Positions 7,505-30,746 of a DNA stretch of 46,354 nucleotides are shown piece by piece. The notes below the pieces were generated by a model, which saw nothing but the letters and a program-made list of their open reading frames with translations, did no database searches and was not told the DNA's origin. Source of the DNA: Candidatus Abawacabacteria bacterium RBG_16_42_10 (GTDB taxonomy: Bacteria; Patescibacteriota; Gracilibacteria; RBG-16-42-10); contig MEWR01000023.1 of assembly GCA_001773455.1 (NCBI GenBank), positions 50,485 through 96,838 on the forward strand, read 5' to 3'. Numbering within the stretch: the stretch's first letter is position 1; each line of letters begins with the position of its first letter. A program made the translations under genes and the position numbers.

Positions 7505-8857
7505 TTCGAATACCACTACATTCTCTATATGGTACGTATGCGGAAACATATCGACCGGTTGCACACTTTTGATGACAAAGCCATATTTCGCTAATTCCTT
7601 GAGGTCACGGGCTTGCGTTGTCGGATTGCAGGAAACATATACCAATCGTTCTAAAGGCAGTTTGCCGATCAATTCCACTGCCTGAGGCATTAATCCCGCG
7701 CGAGGTGGATCTACGAGAGCAATCTCTGCTTGCAGGTTTAATTCTTTCAATTTCTCTGCTGCATCACCGACAAAGAATTCGGCATTAGAAATCTGATTAT
7801 CTATAGCGTTGGCCTCAGCACTTTTGATAGCGTCCGGCACATTATCGATACCGATGACTCTCTTGGCTTTACGGCTAGCAAAAAGCCCCAAAGTCCCTGT
7901 GCCACAATACAGATCGAGCACGGTGTCAGTTGGTTGAATATTGGCTGCCTCCAGTGCTAATTGGTAAAGAATTTTTGCTTGGTCAGGATTCGGTTGAAAA
8001 AATGCGTCAGGGTAGATTTTAAATTGTAATTTTCCCCAAGGTTCCGGGAGATTTAAGGTTTCCTGTAAATGCTCTTCTCCCCATAATTTCCCTGTAATTC
8101 GTGTAGTGGATTTTCCAGTAAGAGCATTCACTTGGGTATGAAAAGCAGCAACGATGTTAAAATCTTTTAATGCTTCTTTTAATTCGTGGGTATTTGGTAA
8201 TGCTCCTTTTCTGGTAATGATGTTAATTAAATGATCGCCAGCTTGGTTGTGACGGATTACCAGGTTGGTTAATAGTCCTTGTTCGGTTTTAGATTCATAG
8301 ACAGGAACTTTATTTTCTCGGGCCCAAGTTCTTACTGTACTAACAATTTGCGCATAAACAGGGGAGGGAAGATGACATTCAGTCAGTTCAAATACATCAT
8401 AATGATAGCCTTTAGGATGCAGTCCCAATGAGACTTCTTTTTGTTCATTATAGGCAAAACTAAACTCCATCTTGTTGCGATAATTCCAAGGATTGGCACA
8501 ACCGATGATTTTGTTGACGCTAACGTCTTTAAATCCTCCGAGATGTTCTAAACTTTCTTTGACGATTTGTTCTTTATAAAACAATTGATCTTCATAGGAG
8601 AGAAATTGCCATGTACAGCCTCCACACACACCAAAATGTTTGCACTTTGCTTGAATGCGTTTTGTTGATGGTTTGAGCAGTTCAACGATTCTACCCTCGG
8701 CATAATTTTTCTTTTTCTTGCTGATTCTAATTTTTGCCTCATCGCCAGGAACAGTTCCCGCGACAAAAATCTTCAGACCTTCATGCGTAGCCACACCCAA
8801 TCCACCGAATGCTAGTTTCTCGGTCTTAATATCTATAATTTGATTTTTTTTAAACAT
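7496..8857 (-). CDS. rlmD: 23S rRNA (uracil-5)-methyltransferase, RumA/RlmD family (TRAM + Fe-S + SAM MTase)
   Basis: N-terminal TRAM-like domain, Cys cluster CKHFGVCGGCTWQ, SAM motif LDLYCGTGTLGL and catalytic VYVSCNPTT. Confidence 0.85.
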   Translation of the reverse strand: MFKKNQIIDIKTEKLAFGGLGVATHEGLKIFVAGTVPGDEAKIRISKKKKNYAEGRIVELLKPSTKRIQAKCKHFGVCGGCTWQFLSYEDQLFYKEQIVKESLEHLGGFKDVSVNKIIGCANPWNYRNKMEFSFAYNEQKEVSLGLHPKGYHYDVFELTECHLPSPVYAQIVSTVRTWARENKVPVYESKTEQGLLTNLVIRHNQAGDHLINIITRKGALPNTHELKEALKDFNIVAAFHTQVNALTGKSTTRITGKLWGEEHLQETLNLPEPWGKLQFKIYPDAFFQPNPDQAKILYQLALEAANIQPTDTVLDLYCGTGTLGLFASRKAKRVIGIDNVPDAIKSAEANAIDNQISNAEFFVGDAAEKLKELNLQAEIALVDPPRAGLMPQAVELIGKLPLERLVYVSCNPTTQARDLKELAKYGFVIKSVQPVDMFPHTYHIENVVVFEKF

Positions 8858-8873
8858 CGATCAGAAATTATAT

Positions 8874-9539
8874 TTATTTTCTTCTCACTTTCAAAATACA
8901 TGCATCATCAATACCTCCTTTAGCACTGATGTAGATTGCATACATTAATATATTTTTATCCAATGAATGTTTTCCACCGAATTCATCACCAAAATCGGGA
9001 TCATTTGTAATAAACTTTGCACCGTGCATTCCAGTTACAACATTGAAGTGAATGCTAAATCGCGGTGGTTCGTTGGTTTTATGCAAAAACCAATGAGAGA
9101 GAGGTACAAGTACAGGTCTATTTTTCTCTAATTCTGCCTCAATATCCTGAATAGTGGGGATTTTAACGCTTATCTTCCCACCTTCTTTAACAAAAGATAT
9201 AAAATGATCCAGAGAAATTGCATCATAACCATCTTTTAAAACGGTTCGCATTTTCTTTAAATAATCAATCAATTCGTCCTGGTCAGAAAAACTGCTATCC
9301 AATTGAAAAAGTGCAGGATGAAGTCCCATAATTTCAACATCAAAACCCTGAGTCAGAAAAAATCTTCCTAATTGAGGTGTAGTCGTCCCCCAAGCATAGA
9401 CTCCAAGTTTCTTTCTTATCTCAGTATAAGCGATATCTAGTTTATAATAATCAGCGATCATAGCAACGCAGGCAACCCCACAATCATTACTCATGTCGTG
9501 TTGTTTTATTGTTGGAATTTTTAAATCAATGCTTTTCAT
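8874..9539 (-). CDS. Papain-like cysteine peptidase, C39-like domain
   Basis: IKQHDMSNDCGVACVAMIADYY (Q...C motif) with a downstream His in HFNVVTG. No attached ABC transporter domain. Confidence 0.6.
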   Translation of the reverse strand: MKSIDLKIPTIKQHDMSNDCGVACVAMIADYYKLDIAYTEIRKKLGVYAWGTTTPQLGRFFLTQGFDVEIMGLHPALFQLDSSFSDQDELIDYLKKMRTVLKDGYDAISLDHFISFVKEGGKISVKIPTIQDIEAELEKNRPVLVPLSHWFLHKTNEPPRFSIHFNVVTGMHGAKFITNDPDFGDEFGGKHSLDKNILMYAIYISAKGGIDDACILKVRRK

Positions 9540-9596
9540 ATTTTCTCATTAAAAACTGAGGAAAAACTACAACTGAATTGGTTGAGTGATTCGACA

Positions 9597-9839
9597 TTAG
9601 ACCACCAACTTTATCAATGCAACTATACCAATAATGCCCCAGAGAATATTAAGGAACATAGGTTGGTAATTCTTCTTCATATAACTGACAGTTACAATAC
9701 CAATGGCCCCTGTGGTATTGAGAAGTTGATACCAAATATTTGTCACTGAAATGATTGAAAAACTATTCAGGAAATAGGCGCTAATGATAGCAATTGCTCC
9801 ATACCATCCGATTATTTCAATGAAAGTATTTTTATGCAT
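9597..9839 (-). CDS. Small three-TM membrane protein (80 aa)
   Basis: Three hydrophobic segments. Size and shape recall SemiSWEET/PQ-loop-like or CBU_0592-like small membrane proteins, but I cannot assign it firmly. Confidence 0.5.
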   Translation of the reverse strand: MHKNTFIEIIGWYGAIAIISAYFLNSFSIISVTNIWYQLLNTTGAIGIVTVSYMKKNYQPMFLNILWGIIGIVALIKLVV

Positions 9840-9892
9840 TCTTTTTAGATAGGTTTTCTGATATTTTGATTCTGGAATTAACTAGATCATAG

Positions 9893-9923
9893 CGGGGTGT
9901 AGGTCGCCTCAGGCGACCGCCAC
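9893..9923 (+). repeat. 31-nt unit: tRNA-Pro nt 1-10 (CGGGGTGTAG) fused to the GC-rich hairpin GGTCGCC-TCA-GGCGACC plus GCCAC; left copy of an inverted pair
   Basis: CGGGGTGTAGGTCGCCTCAGGCGACCGCCAC. The reverse complement of 10782-10812 matches it at 30 of 31 nt. Confidence 0.85.
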
Positions 9924-9936
9924 GTCTTGGGACTGA

Positions 9937-10176
9937 TTATGTCACATGTCTATCTAACCACTCTCTTCCCTTTCCACTTTTCAGGAATTTTTCTCTTTTT
10001 ATTGCTTCATTTCTTGTCTCATATTTTTCCGAATATTCCATAATAAAGGGAATTTGGAATCTAATTGACTTTGTAAATCCTGAATTATGTTCCTTTAGTC
10101 TACGAGTTAAATTGTTTGTATGTCCAATGTATCGATATCTGGTTTTCTGACTTCTTAACACATATACAAAGTACAT
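9937..10176 (-). CDS. GIY-YIG nuclease family protein (79 aa, Uri domain only)
   Basis: MYFVYVLRSQKTRYRYIGHTNNLTRRLKEHNSG...YETRNEAIKREKFLKSGKG carries the GIY/YIG, R, H and E/N motifs. The ATG lies 16 nt after the CCA end of tRNA-Pro(GGG). The 133-aa version in the ORF track reads through the tRNA and is an artefact. Confidence 0.8.
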   Translation of the reverse strand: MYFVYVLRSQKTRYRYIGHTNNLTRRLKEHNSGFTKSIRFQIPFIMEYSEKYETRNEAIKREKFLKSGKGREWLDRHVT

Positions 10177-10192
10177 AACAAAAGAAGTTATA

Positions 10193-10269
10193 TGGTCGGG
10201 GTGACAGGACTTGAACCTGCGACCTCTTGCACCCCATGCAAGCGCGCTAGCCAACTGCGCTACACCCCG
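10193..10269 (-). tRNA. tRNA-Pro (anticodon GGG), copy 1
   Basis: Minus strand: CGGGGTG-TA-GCGC-AGTTGGCTA-GCGC-G-CTTGC-ATGGGGT-GCAAG-AGGTC-GCAGG-TTCAAGT-CCTGT-CACCCCG-ACCA. Full cloverleaf, G37, encoded CCA. Confidence 0.9.
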
Positions 10270-10316
10270 GAAAACCGAAAGAAATCTATCACACAAATTA
10301 CCAGCTTGCACCCCAT

Positions 10317-10333
10317 GGTCGCCTGAGGCGACC
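10317..10333. repeat. GC-rich hairpin GGTCGCC-TGA-GGCGACC (copy 2)
   Basis: 17-nt palindrome at the junction of the two 211-bp units. On the minus strand it is followed by ATGGGGTGCAAG, the tRNA-Pro anticodon loop plus 3' stem strand. Confidence 0.85.
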
Positions 10334-10387
10334 TCCAATGTATCGATATCTGGTTTTCTGACTTCTTAACACATATACAAAGTACAT
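10334..10387 (-). pseudogene. 5' stump of the GIY-YIG gene (18 codons) created by the tandem duplication
   Basis: ATGTACTTTGTATATGTGTTAAGAAGTCAGAAAACCAGATATCGATACATTGGA is identical to the start of 9937-10176, then runs into the hairpin. Confidence 0.8.
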
Positions 10388-10403
10388 AACAAAAGAAGTT
10401 ATA

Positions 10404-10480
10404 TGGTCGGGGTGACAGGACTTGAACCTGCGACCTCTTGCACCCCATGCAAGCGCGCTAGCCAACTGCGCTACACCCCG
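10404..10480 (-). tRNA. tRNA-Pro (anticodon GGG), copy 2, identical to copy 1
   Basis: Same 77-nt sequence as 10193-10269, offset by 211 bp. Confidence 0.9.
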
Positions 10481-10515
10481 GAAAACCGAAAGAAATCTAT
10501 CACACAAATTACCAG

Positions 10516-10568
10516 CTTGCACCCCATGGTCGCCTGAGGCGACCGCTAGCCAACTGCGCTACACCCCG
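10516..10568 (-). pseudogene. Disrupted tRNA-Pro(GGG): nt 1-24, then the 17-nt hairpin in place of about 8 nt (D-stem end plus 5' anticodon-stem strand), then anticodon loop and 3' stem, then unrelated sequence
   Basis: Minus strand: CGGGGTGTAGCGCAGTTGGCTAGC-GGTCGCCTCAGGCGACC-ATGGGGTGCAAG-CTGGTAA. Preceded by the same GTTAGATT promoter-like box seen upstream of the other Pro genes. Confidence 0.8.
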
Positions 10569-10645
10569 AGACTTGGAGAATCTAACATATCTTATTCCTT
10601 GAGTTTATTCAGAGGTCGAGGTGAGGGTTATATTTTCACTGCCAT

Positions 10646-10674
10646 TCAAAACTTCGATGGCCCGCCATCCGAAG
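10646..10674 (-). terminator. Rho-independent terminator after tRNA-Pro(CGG)
   Basis: Minus strand: CTTCGGATGGC-GG-GCCATCGAAG followed by TTTTGA. Confidence 0.6.
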
Positions 10675-10687
10675 CCTTGGCGTAGGA

Positions 10688-10764
10688 TGGTCGGGGTGAT
10701 CCGATTCGAACGGACGACCTCCACGTCCCGAACGTGGCGCGCTAGCCAGCTGCGCTACACCCCG
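10688..10764 (-). tRNA. tRNA-Pro (anticodon CGG)
   Basis: CGGGGTG-TA-GCGC-AGCTGGCTA-GCGC-G-CCACG-TTCGGGA-CGTGG-AGGTC-GTCCG-TTCGAAT-CGGAT-CACCCCG-ACCA. Confidence 0.9.
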
Positions 10765-10781
10765 ATGATACCGATTAAACT

Positions 10782-10812
10782 GTGGCGGTCGCCTGAGGCG
10801 ACCTACATCCCG
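10782..10812 (-). repeat. 31-nt unit (tRNA-Pro-like nt 1-10 CGGGATGTAG + hairpin + GCCAC); right copy of the inverted pair, sitting in the leader of tRNA-Pro(CGG)
   Basis: Minus strand: CGGGATGTAGGTCGCCTCAGGCGACCGCCAC, preceded by GTTAGATTTTTGGAGGTTTTT (promoter-like box). Confidence 0.85.
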
Positions 10813-10947
10813 AAAAACCTCCAAAAATCTAACATATCTTACTCTTCACCTCCATCTGCATTTTTTCTTAAAATTTATTTAAGATGAAGATGGAGGGATA
10901 AGAATGTTGATCTAAGTGATCTGACTGGAACAATGCCAGTAAAAACT

Positions 10948-11208
10948 TTACTTTTTCTTAATTGACCAATTATACACTGTAGCGAGTAACCAACCTGCTA
11001 TTGCTCCACCGATAACGGCACAAAGTAAAACGCCAACGACTGCCTTTGGATCGAGTGGGGAAATATTATAGAGAAGACCAACGACGGATGGTTGGGCCAT
11101 GAGTCCGTGCCAAATAAGATGAACAAGCCAACCAAGGAAGCCTAAAACTGCCCCAGTCATCGCCAAGCCATTGGCGCTCAATGGATGATATGAATCATTA
11201 CCAAACAT
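10948..11208 (-). CDS. Small membrane protein (86 aa)
   Basis: Two to three hydrophobic helices (GAVLGFLGWLVHLIW, VVGVLLCAVIGGAIAGWLLA). Confidence 0.5.
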   Translation of the reverse strand: MFGNDSYHPLSANGLAMTGAVLGFLGWLVHLIWHGLMAQPSVVGLLYNISPLDPKAVVGVLLCAVIGGAIAGWLLATVYNWSIKKK

Positions 11209-11315
11209 AGAAAATGGTTAATTGTAGCCTTAGATTATGTCTAGCACACAAGAGTAAACAAGGTGTTGTCGGTACTATGACTGGCAACATACGTGATTTG
11301 CGTTGAAATGCCGTA

Positions 11316-11546
11316 TTACTTTTTGCTCAATAATCTGCTACCAAAGACGGTAACAATAACGACTATAGTGGTAATAATACCAGCATAACCGAATTTAGCC
11401 CATACAGAACTTGTTTCCAAAGGAAAGACGTATTTAATCAATGACTGAAAGGCATCGTTCCAAGCAAAAGCTGTTACTACTCCAAGAGAGGCAAAGATAG
11501 TTGCAGTAAGCGGAAACGATTGTGTCTTACAGGCATAAATGGGAAT
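11316..11546 (-). CDS. Possible small 2-TM protein (about 75 aa) without a canonical start codon
   Basis: Own translation: (I)PIYACKTQSFPLTATIFASLGVVTAFAWNDAFQSLIKYVFPLETSSVWAKFGYAGIITTIVVIVTVFGSRLLSKK*. The frame opens directly after a TAA, and the first plausible codon is ATT. The AWNDAF motif recalls a conserved ~80-aa family that I remember as DUF5654, without certainty. Confidence 0.35.
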   Translation of the reverse strand: MPIYACKTQSFPLTATIFASLGVVTAFAWNDAFQSLIKYVFPLETSSVWAKFGYAGIITTIVVIVTVFGSRLLSKK

Positions 11547-12412
11547 TAATTAACTACAACGATGCTACCGAGCATATTTTGGGGAACATGCGCTGAACAA
11601 TGATAATTGTATTGCCCTGGGATTTGAAAAGTAGTGGAGAAAGATTCTCCTGATGCTACTTCTCGGGAATTCTGTTCTGGGAAATAGGTATGTTCAGGAT
11701 GAGTCTCTGTATTTACAAAATGTCCGAATGAACCTTCATTGCTCCAGGTGACTTTTGTTCCTGGGGAAATAATGATCTGCCTTGGCTCGAAGTTAAAATC
11801 CTTCATCGAAACAGTAACAGATGTTTGATTTCTCATGTCAGTATAAACAGTTTTTTTGCTGCTATCGATGGCAAATGAAAATTCTCCATCGTGACATGAT
11901 TTGTCTGGCCAACAGGCATAATAAGTGACCTTATAAAGACCATCAAGCATACCAGACTTTAGAGCAATCTTGAGCACAGTATTGTTGTCTTCAATAACAA
12001 CATTTCCATCAGTCCATTCCTTATTATCCGTTGAAGTCACTGATATTTTGCTGCCGACCGCAACGTCGAAGTTAAAGTTTATAGTAATGTTGATTGGTTG
12101 TGCTGCATAAATTTCTTCATGTAATGGTGTGGAATCTACAAAGTGTGGAGACTTTAATTGTTTGTCGAAGGAAAAAGTAAGAGGTACAGGAAAAGGTGAT
12201 GACGTAGGCGGCACAATTAATTGTGCCGGGGCTGTGGTAGATGGAGATGAAGGAGGAGGGAAAAGGGGCGAAGTAGGCGCCGCAAAATCTTGCGGCGGTA
12301 CCAGTGTAGATGAAGATGGAGAAACGGGCGTAGTCAATGCAGGCGTAGATATAGAAAAATCACAGGCACTTACAAAGAGAACAGCAACAACAAGCAAAGA
12401 AAGTTTTTTCAT
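11546..12412 (-). CDS. Lipoprotein with a CopC-like domain fused to a blue-copper cupredoxin domain
   Basis: Lipobox LFVSAC and a Pro/Ser linker. CopC-like segment (KISVTSTDNKEW...YKVTYYACWPDKSCHDGEFSFAI). Cupredoxin ligands are H (GHFVN) and C-x2-H-x5-M (YHCSAHVPQNMLGSIVV). Confidence 0.75.
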   Translation of the reverse strand: MKKLSLLVVAVLFVSACDFSISTPALTTPVSPSSSTLVPPQDFAAPTSPLFPPPSSPSTTAPAQLIVPPTSSPFPVPLTFSFDKQLKSPHFVDSTPLHEEIYAAQPINITINFNFDVAVGSKISVTSTDNKEWTDGNVVIEDNNTVLKIALKSGMLDGLYKVTYYACWPDKSCHDGEFSFAIDSSKKTVYTDMRNQTSVTVSMKDFNFEPRQIIISPGTKVTWSNEGSFGHFVNTETHPEHTYFPEQNSREVASGESFSTTFQIPGQYNYHCSAHVPQNMLGSIVVVN

Positions 12413-12432
12413 GGGGGAAAATGAATGATATA

Positions 12433-13113
12433 TTAGCCGGCTAAATATAAAAGTGTCAGGACAAAATCGACTGGTTTAGCAATGAGATATTGTAAAAGAG
12501 GAATGTTTAGAAAATTGCTAAAAATGATGACAGAGAATAGTGCTATTGGGCCGTTAACCTCTAACCATTCTGAGACATTAGCTAGACGATGACCAAGAAC
12601 TAAAAAGAGTACTTTTGATCCATCAAGCGGGGGAATAGGAATCAAATTGAATATCATCAAGACAATATTTAGGGAAATGGTGAATGCCAGAAAGGTGGTG
12701 AGAAAATCAGTAAGTGGCCCACTGAAGAGCGGTAGTATGTGTTTCATGGGGATGACCAAGATGGCTGCAGTGACCAGATTGGAAAGTGGACCTGCAAGCG
12801 AGATTAATGCCTGATCGCGAAGAGGATGAGCCAGATTGCGAGGATTCACTGGTACAGGTTTACCCCACCCAAAACGTACAAGAAACAGCAAAATAGTTCC
12901 CAATGGATCGAGATGTTTAAGTGGATTGAGTGTCAATCTGCCAGCAAATTTGGCTGTAGGATCTCCTAAAGCATACGCAGCGGCAGCATGTGCACATTCA
13001 TGTACGCTGATAGCGACAAAAAAAGCTAAAACGATCGCCAGAAATTCTAAAATAAGTTCCATGAATTCATATAAAACTGATGCTACTATAAACGATACAC
13101 TTGCTTGTGTCAT
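12433..13113 (-). CDS. Site-2 protease family (M50) membrane metalloprotease
   Basis: HECAHAAAAYALGD (HExxH) and NLIPIPPLDGSKV motifs, multiple TM helices. Confidence 0.8.
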   Translation of the reverse strand: MTQASVSFIVASVLYEFMELILEFLAIVLAFFVAISVHECAHAAAAYALGDPTAKFAGRLTLNPLKHLDPLGTILLFLVRFGWGKPVPVNPRNLAHPLRDQALISLAGPLSNLVTAAILVIPMKHILPLFSGPLTDFLTTFLAFTISLNIVLMIFNLIPIPPLDGSKVLFLVLGHRLANVSEWLEVNGPIALFSVIIFSNFLNIPLLQYLIAKPVDFVLTLLYLAG

Positions 13114-30249: not shown

Positions 30250-30305
30250 AAGAAAAAATTTGGTTGTCCCGAAGGGAGGCCATCGCCCGGGGGACTTTAG
30301 AAAAT

Positions 30306-30367
30306 TGGTTGCGGGGGTTGGACTCGAACCCTAACGATCCCGCTCAGCGGGATTATGAGCCTTGCGA
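30306..30367 (-). pseudogene. 3' two-thirds of a tRNA-fMet gene in which 8 nt (3' anticodon-stem strand plus start of the variable loop) are replaced by the hairpin TCCCGC-TGA-GCGGGA
   Basis: Minus strand: TCGCAAGGCTCATAA-TCCCGCTGAGCGGGA-TCGTTAGGGTTCGAGTCCAACCCCCGCAACCA. The intact gene has TCGCAAGGCTCATAA-CCTTGAGG-TCGTTGGTTCGAGTCCAACCCCCGCAACCA. Confidence 0.8.
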
Positions 30368-30610
30368 AAGACCAGTAATCTTATAAAACCCATTTCCTCC
30401 TTTCTGAGCTTTTAACGTGTTTTCTAATTTTCTTGCTTCAGAAAGTGAAAGAAATTTACTACACCATACCAGATTCCATGGTCCTTTAAAACGCGTCCAA
30501 ACAGATTGGTTGAAGCTGTGCTCAAACAACCGTTTTTCAATATTACTAGAGAGTCCTATATGTTTTCTACCTAAATCGTTTTTTAAAACATAAACTTGGT
30601 ATTGAGGCAT
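30353..30610 (-). CDS. GIY-YIG nuclease family protein (85 aa)
   Basis: MPQYQVYVLKNDLGRKHIGLSSNIEKRLFEH...SLSEARKLENTLKAQKG. The last five codons and the TAA stop (TCG CAA GGC TCA TAA) are encoded by the anticodon stem-loop of the tRNA-fMet remnant. Confidence 0.8.
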   Translation of the reverse strand: MPQYQVYVLKNDLGRKHIGLSSNIEKRLFEHSFNQSVWTRFKGPWNLVWCSKFLSLSEARKLENTLKAQKGGNGFYKITGLSQGS

Positions 30611-30670
30611 ATCAAAAGAAGTTTCATGCCTACCATAGCAAGTAAATAATGAAATTATTCAAACAAAAAT

Positions 30671-30746
30671 TGGTTGCGGGGGTTGGACTCGAACCAACGA
30701 CCTCAAGGTTATGAGCCTTGCGAGCTGCCAACTGCTCTACCCCGCG
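30671..30746 (-). tRNA. tRNA-fMet (initiator, anticodon CAT)
   Basis: CGCGGGG-TA-GAGC-AGTTGGCA-GCTC-G-CAAGG-CTCATAA-CCTTG-AGGTC-GTTGG-TTCGAGT-CCAAC-CCCCGCA-ACCA. The C1/A72 mismatch is typical of bacterial initiator tRNA. Confidence 0.85.

Follow-up and report, generated by a model that had tools for sequence, protein, structure and literature searches.

The window analysed here is a stretch of 46,354 nucleotides (G000:C23:50485-96838) from a 1.1-Mb, 28-contig genome with 41% GC content that belongs to the Candidate Phyla Radiation (CPR)/Patescibacteria and is referred to as G000. It contains a pair of 31-nt inverted repeats that enclose tRNA-Pro genes and the gene of a 79-aa GIY-YIG nuclease, and each repeat is built around a 15-nt palindromic hairpin of the form GTCGCC-TNA-GGCGAC, which we call P. 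The nuclease gene and the hairpin are inherited together, are nested in tRNA genes and show rearrangement joints at the borders between hairpin and tRNA sequence. Across genomes, P co-occurs with the nuclease lineage and not with Y1 transposases. The locus probably represents a selfish nuclease-plus-hairpin cassette that resembles the Ssn family of GIY-YIG enzymes and has become nested in tRNA-Pro genes. Judged from their sequence, both members of the inverted pair are copies of a single chimeric module, namely a 5' stump of tRNA-Pro(CGG) with a hairpin-substituted D arm. We consider it likely that the pair is a by-product of the cassette and not a repetitive extragenic palindromic (REP) element, a miniature inverted-repeat transposable element (MITE) or a switch.

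The repeats CGGGGTGTAGGTCGCCTCAGGCGACCGCCAC (9893-9923, plus strand) and CGGGATGTAGGTCGCCTCAGGCGACCGCCAC (10812-10782, minus strand) are 97% complementary with one mismatch and are separated by 858 nt. The initial annotation had described them correctly. They enclose two tRNA-Pro(GGG) genes, one tRNA-Pro(CGG) gene and the 79-aa GIY-YIG open reading frame (ORF). The extended stem that it proposed (GTG-TA-GGTCGCC-TCA-GGCGACC-GC-CAC) folds as well, with -9.5 kcal/mol as single-stranded DNA (ssDNA). Two properties of the locus had been overlooked. Two further copies of the palindrome lie within the bracket (10317-10333 and 10528-10544), and the window contains the 17-nt core GGTCGCCTSAGGCGACC four times (at 9902, 10317, 10528 and 10787) vs. 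zero expected from 100 shuffles. Furthermore, tRNA-Pro(CGG) sequence is present on both flanks of each arm and extends beyond the first 10 nt. In an alignment by eye to the tRNA-Pro genes of the genome, each arm consists of nt 1-10 and nt 25-30 of tRNA-Pro(CGG), and where the 15-nt D arm would stand between them it carries the 15-nt palindrome GTCGCCTSAGGCGAC. The intact tRNA-Pro(CGG) reads CGGGGTGTAG/CGCAGCTGGCTAGCG/CGCCACG at this position and the arms read CGGGRTGTAG/GTCGCCTCAGGCGAC/CGCCAC.

The hairpin-bearing units, named A to D in Table 1, are arranged on the coding strand in the order A, tRNA-Pro(CGG), B, tRNA-Pro(GGG), truncated GIY-YIG copy, C, tRNA-Pro(GGG), GIY-YIG gene and inverted D. 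The right arm is unit A, and 17 nt separate it from the intact tRNA-Pro(CGG) downstream. Unit C is fused straight to codon 19 of the truncated GIY-YIG copy, and this fusion is the joint of a 211-bp duplication, each unit of which holds tRNA-Pro(GGG), a spacer and the palindrome together with 54 nt from the start of the GIY-YIG gene. Two alternative derivations of the arms were rejected. Read as a direct 3' tRNA half (CGTGG..CACCCCG), unit D shows about four mismatches and a misfit in the anticodon loop and is devoid of CCA, whereas the inverted 5' half fits at 31 of 31 positions including nt 8-10 and 25-26. Slippage between two TAGC motifs of a B-type stump predicts an A/D junction that is 2 nt off.

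The same arrangement recurs in other genomes. A homologue scan with the 79-aa protein as query and one genome per species returned 79 loci from many phyla. At about 60 of the 79, the ORF has a tRNA gene on the same strand that is ~0-80 nt away or reaches into the end of the ORF, and nearly all of these ~60 loci have partial copies of the same tRNA across the ORF, often split by ~14-15 nt that stand in place of 6-12 nt of tRNA sequence. The cassette layout is an ~80-aa GIY-YIG gene directly beside an intact tRNA, with hairpin-substituted partial copies of that tRNA on the other side. In the window, the nuclease gene sits between an intact tRNA-Pro(GGG) and unit D, and the tRNA-Pro(GGG) stumps B and C belong to this cassette type as well. 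The eight closest homologues (L034-L041; 63-73% identity) are hosted by distant CPR genomes including Paceibacterota, Magasanikbacteria and Peregrinibacteria, and all of them lie beside tRNA-Pro(GGG) with an exact P between tRNA nt 24 and 32, which is the design of unit B. In total, tRNA stumps with P adjoin close homologues of 62-73% identity in nine distant CPR genomes. Further P-type cassettes are found at a tRNA-Val and at a tRNA-Gly. In the cassettes inspected, P always interrupts a stump and never an intact tRNA.

More distant loci harbor sister hairpins (TCCGCC-TGA-GGCGGA, CCCGCC-TAA-GGCGGG and TGCGCC-TCA-GGCGCA), and the general pattern NNNCGCC-N2-4-GGCGNNN has 139 matches in 58 of the 79 loci vs. 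7.7 in shuffled sequences. The stem type follows protein similarity, because GTCGCC stems are present in 9/9 loci at ≥62% protein identity vs. 3/70 below. All five host genomes of P-type cassettes that were searched contain P; the Magasanikbacteria genome G042 has 12 dispersed copies, which cap larger intergenic palindromes. Among 39 further relatives of G000, all of them free of P, no homologue above 52% identity was found. These comparisons make it likely that mini-cassettes of a widespread class have P as their signature hairpin. The hairpin is identical across phyla while the protein is ~62-73% identical, suggesting that enzyme and hairpin work as a pair whose habitat is tRNA genes.

Other arrangements of GIY-YIG genes, hairpins or tRNA fragments are visible in G000 itself. 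A second mini-cassette in the window (30301-30746) consists of an intact tRNA-fMet, an 85-aa GIY-YIG ORF and a 3' tRNA-fMet copy in which the 15-nt hairpin TCCCGCTGAGCGGGA replaces 8 nt; the stop codon of the ORF lies inside the anticodon loop of this remnant. At G000:C8:164452-164786 (L028), a full and a partial GIY-YIG ORF are found in tandem between tRNA-Tyr and tRNA-Ser, beside an assembly gap. The hairpin AGGTCACAATTTGTGACCT at G000:C10:34957, which has three copies in the genome, is located ~240 nt from a GIY-YIG ORF of a third type (C10:35194-35388) and may be part of another nuclease-hairpin pair. At G000:C6:58146-58326, two tRNA-Ile-like fragments (nt 3-27 and 45-77) flank an intact tRNA-Val(GAC) at 58195-58271, as if the tRNA-Val were nested in a broken tRNA.

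The 79-aa protein matches PF01541 in a Pfam search (E=1.4e-15) over residues 1-69; it represents the catalytic domain only and is devoid of a DNA-binding domain. Like the Ssn nucleases, it is a single-domain GIY-YIG protein of <150 aa. The palindrome is found on both sides of the gene (9902-9918 and 10317-10333), and the TAA stop codon (9937-9939) is positioned 3 nt past the end of the anticodon-loop homology of unit D, on the opposite strand. An identical protein is encoded on at least 24 other public contigs. To our knowledge, the small GIY-YIG proteins with a single domain, both UPF0213/YhbQ-like and Ssn-like, rank with the most common proteins of bacteria whose biological role has not been settled.

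Counted genome-wide, as the initial annotation had proposed, the unit proves to be a repeated hairpin: GTCGCCTNAGGCGAC occurs 16 times in G000. Four copies are present in the sister species of the same genus (G001) and none in the 39 further relatives. P is the most frequent hairpin with a 7-bp stem in the genome and folds as ssDNA with -7.3 kcal/mol (z = -5.1). Its copies occur in both orientations with flanks that vary from copy to copy; several adjoin tRNA genes, and one is a native hairpin of the 23S rRNA. An Rfam search of 18 palindrome loci (E≤0.1) returned tRNAs and 23S rRNA only and no family for P.

Some of the dispersed copies are found in coding regions. Ribosomal protein L4, IleS, MutS and a protein with an S1 domain have basic, Lys-rich tails whose coding sequence includes P in frame (G000:C27:5486, C15:9191, C8:140122; G001 L030-L032). 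These copies have common flanks (GTAARGGCG-P-CAGCCYC) and encode V(K/R)AVASGDQP, and the L4 copy is present in both species of the genus. In addition, a G-rich repeat family of ~60-120 nt (..GGGTG-P-CCCAGGGAGGGNGGGTGG..), which has no Rfam match, embeds P upstream of several genes (G000:C8:19793, C14:13504, C8:176355, C11:102507 and C1:2329).

Independent public assemblies were used for a population comparison. Unit D is identical in 7/7 assemblies inspected. Three structural variants of the locus are seen, i.e., one B stump (L127, L129), two tandem B stumps of 88 nt (L125, L126, L128) and the 211-bp duplication of the window, and the units by which they differ are bounded by P or tRNA sequence. 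The duplication is absent from eight other assemblies and found only in the assembly of the window; it reflects either strain variation or an artefact of assembly. The central P base of unit A (10787-10803) is C or G depending on the assembly (L124, L127, L129) in identical surroundings, the appearance that an in-place flip of the palindrome would have. A metagenome pattern scan with a 26-nt unit matched one contig; the right arm is present in G001 and in the metagenome contig L124. Since unit A has been kept upstream of tRNA-Pro(CGG) in G001, it predates the split of the two species and is, on the sequence evidence, the older stump beside tRNA-Pro(CGG). G001 carries a different small gene after tRNA-Pro(GGG) and no nuclease gene at that site, and its contigs break inside both tRNA-Pro genes.

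How might the cassette operate? Enzymes of the Ssn family are GIY-YIG nucleases of ~94 aa that cut ssDNA beside a cognate hairpin; their hairpin repeats (NTS/SRM) flank the nuclease gene and are also dispersed in the genome, and the authors liken their system to REP elements and REP-associated tyrosine transposases (RAYT) (Chenal et al. 2025, PMC11893778). By analogy, the 79-aa nuclease would recognise P, most likely as an ssDNA hairpin. Breaks adjoining P might then be repaired by recombination with tRNA sequence serving as homology. Such repair would spread the cassette into tRNA genes, leave stumps and stump arrays behind, and seed solo copies of P elsewhere, including the coding tails among the 16 copies of G000. 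The inverted unit D, which is unusual among the cassettes, is probably a rearrangement at the palindrome because any two copies of P are both direct and inverted repeats.

Several observations weigh against this Ssn-like interpretation. P does not match the published SRM motif HGTCWY..RNCYNB in any of the 16 copies, and the motif has no match in the window and eight in the genome, none of which overlaps P. The best relatives of the protein in the PDB are the UPF0213 proteins 1YWL (E=1.7e-7) and 1ZG2. The symmetry of P is perfect and includes its centre (T-N-A), which would also suit recognition as double-stranded DNA (dsDNA) by a symmetric dimer, a mode that would require protection of 16 genomic sites. 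Unit D is devoid of the direct 3' tRNA remnant that is found downstream of the ORF in other cassettes. Finally, no close homologue of the nuclease was found in G001, which has P copies, in an assembly that is 81% complete and broken at the tRNA-Pro genes.

A bolder version of the mechanism regards P itself as a nuclease-dependent mobile unit of only 15-17 nt, a possibility we hold to be unlikely. The enzyme would nick hairpin-forming ssDNA, and repair would overwrite a native hairpin with P. Candidate examples would be the tRNA D arm of 15 nt that gave way to exactly 15 nt, the anticodon and T arms in other cassettes, and the coding-tail segments of L4 and IleS. If true, no DNA element that propagates itself by an enzyme of its own would be smaller than P, and both the disabled tRNA stumps and the in-frame 'VASGDQP' peptides would be accounted for.

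The main rival to the Ssn-like cassette is homing into intact tRNA genes with P as cargo. Here, a classical free-standing homing endonuclease would cut the dsDNA of cassette-free tRNA-Pro genes, P would disable or insulate the stumps, so that they are neither cut again nor expressed, and solo copies of P would have spread otherwise. The position of the gene in a tRNA cluster, as known for T4 SegB (PMC2330249), is consistent with homing, as are the stumps, which resemble homology arms from double-strand-break repair, the G001 site without the gene and the finding that P interrupts the stumps and never the intact tRNA. However, the 79-aa protein has no DNA-binding domain, and an intact and presumably cleavable tRNA copy persists beside the gene. 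Homing also leaves unexplained the dispersed copies of P at non-tRNA sites (16 in G000 and 12 in G042) and the conservation of P at the nucleotide level among proteins of 62-73% identity. We regard homing as improbable.

Much less probable is an element that acts at the RNA level, in which P would serve transcripts of tRNA operons as a hairpin for termination, processing or stability and its tRNA-like flanks would reflect leader mimicry. Many copies do lie in tRNA leaders or spacers and the hairpin is stable. Yet P is not followed by a T-run and is matched by no Rfam family, and its copies occur in either orientation, upstream of tRNAs as well as inside coding tails. Moreover, P tracks the nuclease lineage and not tRNA identity, and the stems of the copies inspected are strictly Watson-Crick, with no G-U pairs. 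The initial annotation had conceded that the arms might be similar merely because they share the 10 nt at the start of tRNA-Pro and a common terminator hairpin; both components are essentially present, with the difference that the hairpin is not a terminator.

The REP-like reading put forward in the initial annotation is highly improbable. It takes P for an extragenic palindrome with a 5' GTAG that is mobilised by a Y1 (IS200-like) transposase elsewhere in the genome, and the inverted pair for a REPIN- or MITE-like structure. The genome-wide search for RAYT/Y1 genes that was suggested at the time reveals three Y1_Tnp-like ORFs in G000, none of which is flanked by P. A 5' GTAG or GTAA does precede the palindromes of other families in the genome, and among these families one adjoins a Y1 gene. 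At P, by contrast, GTAG is found at 2 of the 16 copies only (units A and D), where it equals tRNA-Pro positions 7-10 and is not part of the repeat. The P-bearing genomes G042-G044 have no Y1 gene, whereas 17 of the 39 relatives have Y1 genes and no P. The arms lie 858 nt apart with four genes between them, unlike the short-spacer REPIN doublet that forms one long hairpin. A MITE-like cassette is also at odds with the data: the outer flanks (...ATCATAG and AAAAACC...) have no direct repeat in common and thus show no target-site duplication, the 860-bp unit is single-copy and just two copies of the 31-nt unit exist. A REP private to the genus and expanded by a RAYT was considered as well and was rejected on account of the occurrence of P beside nuclease homologues in other phyla and its lack of correlation with Y1 genes. 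In functional terms, the analogy to REP elements is nevertheless apt, as P behaves like a nuclease-associated repeat; its likely partner enzyme is the putative nuclease encoded inside the bracket.

Genuine palindrome families with a 5' GTAG or GTAA, whose sequences differ from P, are GTAGG-N-GGCACAATTAATTGTGCC-GGTAC (12 copies), GTAGGC-GCCGCAAGATCTTGCGGC-GGTAC (~4 copies) and GTAAG-GGCGCAAGATCTTGCGCC-CCAAC (6 copies). A cupredoxin-like lipoprotein (ORF 11546-12412, minus strand) has two copies of these families (12204-12227 and 12273-12296) in frame within its Pro/Thr-rich linker. At G000:C8:82590-83126 (L010 1399-1470), a RAYT-like Y1_Tnp ORF of 178 aa is followed directly 3' of its stop codon by the palindrome TGGGGCGCAAAATCTTGCGCCCGTAC and a half copy of it; gene and palindrome are a candidate for a genuine REP/RAYT pair of a CPR genome and have no relation to P. 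For annotation, a GTAG plus palindrome beside a tRNA should not be taken as a REP element, because GTAG can be tRNA positions 7-10.

The proposal that the 31-nt repeats are crossover sites that flip the tRNA/GIY-YIG block draws on the near-perfect match of the arms and on the C/G difference at the central palindrome base of unit A, and is hardly credible given that the block has the orientation of the window in each of the five assemblies that extend into both flanking genes, that in G001 (rumA ... tRNA-Pro(GGG); tRNA-Pro(CGG)-A-86-aa gene) the tRNA orientation relative to both flanking genes is unchanged, that no recombinase gene is found among the ORFs at 8500-12500, and that an inversion would not obviously change any gene-promoter relation.

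Table 1. Features of the tRNA-Pro/GIY-YIG locus (positions in the window).
Feature	Position	Strand	Composition	Basis
Unit D, inverted 5' stump of tRNA-Pro(CGG), includes the left arm 9893-9923	9893-9933	+	tRNA nt 1-10 (9893-9902); 15-nt palindrome (9903-9917; 17-nt palindrome 9902-9918); tRNA nt 25-31 CGCCACG (9918-9924); degenerate anticodon loop TCTTGGGA-C (9925-9933; loop: GTCTTGGGAC)	Alignment by eye; identical in 7 assemblies
79-aa single-domain GIY-YIG nuclease gene	9937-10176	-		ORF, PF01541
Intact tRNA-Pro(GGG), copy 1	10193-10269	-	16 nt upstream of the GIY-YIG start	Rfam tRNA
Perfect 211-bp tandem duplication	10123-10333 / 10334-10544			Found in this assembly only
Unit C	10305-10333	-	Palindrome (10317-10333); tRNA-Pro(GGG) nt 32-43 (10305-10316)	
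Intact tRNA-Pro(GGG), copy 2	10404-10480	-	In the duplicated unit	
Unit B, 5' stump of tRNA-Pro(GGG)	10516-10568	-	tRNA nt 1-24 (10568-10545); palindrome (10544-10528); tRNA nt 32-43 (10527-10516)	
Intact tRNA-Pro(CGG)	10688-10764	-		
Unit A, right arm	10782-10812	-	tRNA-Pro(CGG) nt 1-10 (one G>A); palindrome; tRNA nt 25-30	

Among known systems, tRNA-targeting integrative elements likewise keep an intact tRNA beside the insert and a displaced partial tRNA at the other border. In contrast to them, the cassette has no integrase, its insert measures ~0.3-0.45 kb, and its stumps are rewritten internally by the hairpin, represent 5' or 3' parts of the tRNA and are inverted in one case. REP elements and bacterial interspersed mosaic elements (BIME) with their RAYT (TnpA-REP), as well as SMAG-type GTAG palindromes, are also short, GC-rich, imperfect-stem palindromes that partly form inverted pairs, and a dedicated nuclease has been proposed to handle them as ssDNA hairpins. 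The differences are that GTAG is not conserved at P, that P has no link to Y1 genes and a GIY-YIG partner instead, and that copies of P are found in tRNA stumps and coding tails.

SegB of phage T4 is a multi-domain enzyme with a DNA-binding region and cuts dsDNA. Its gene resembles the one described here in that it is a GIY-YIG gene between tRNA genes and is co-inherited with flanking markers; it varies in presence among close relatives, as the gene described here may also do (PMC2330249). The resemblance is confined to the genomic address: the cassette encodes a 79-aa catalytic domain only, has conserved hairpins and duplicated tRNA stumps, and resides in a cellular CPR host and not in a phage. 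A literature search for GIY-YIG cassettes nested in tRNA genes returned SegB and organellar cases only.

The closest parallel is the Ssn family. Both systems combine a single-domain GIY-YIG protein of <100 aa with a short GC-rich hairpin on both sides of the gene, and in both, further copies of the hairpin are scattered over the host genome and hairpin and gene are found together across phyla. They differ in that P is outside the SRM motif and amounts to tens of copies instead of the hundreds in Ssn, that the nearest solved structures of the 79-aa protein are UPF0213 proteins, and that the cassette is nested in tRNA genes with hairpin-substituted stumps, tRNA being unmentioned in the description of Ssn (PMC11893778). 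If the Ssn-like interpretation is correct, the Ssn paradigm would extend to a selfish, tRNA-targeting lifestyle, many of the odd tRNA fragments in genome annotations would find an explanation, and the cassettes would offer compact candidates for hairpin-specific nucleases.

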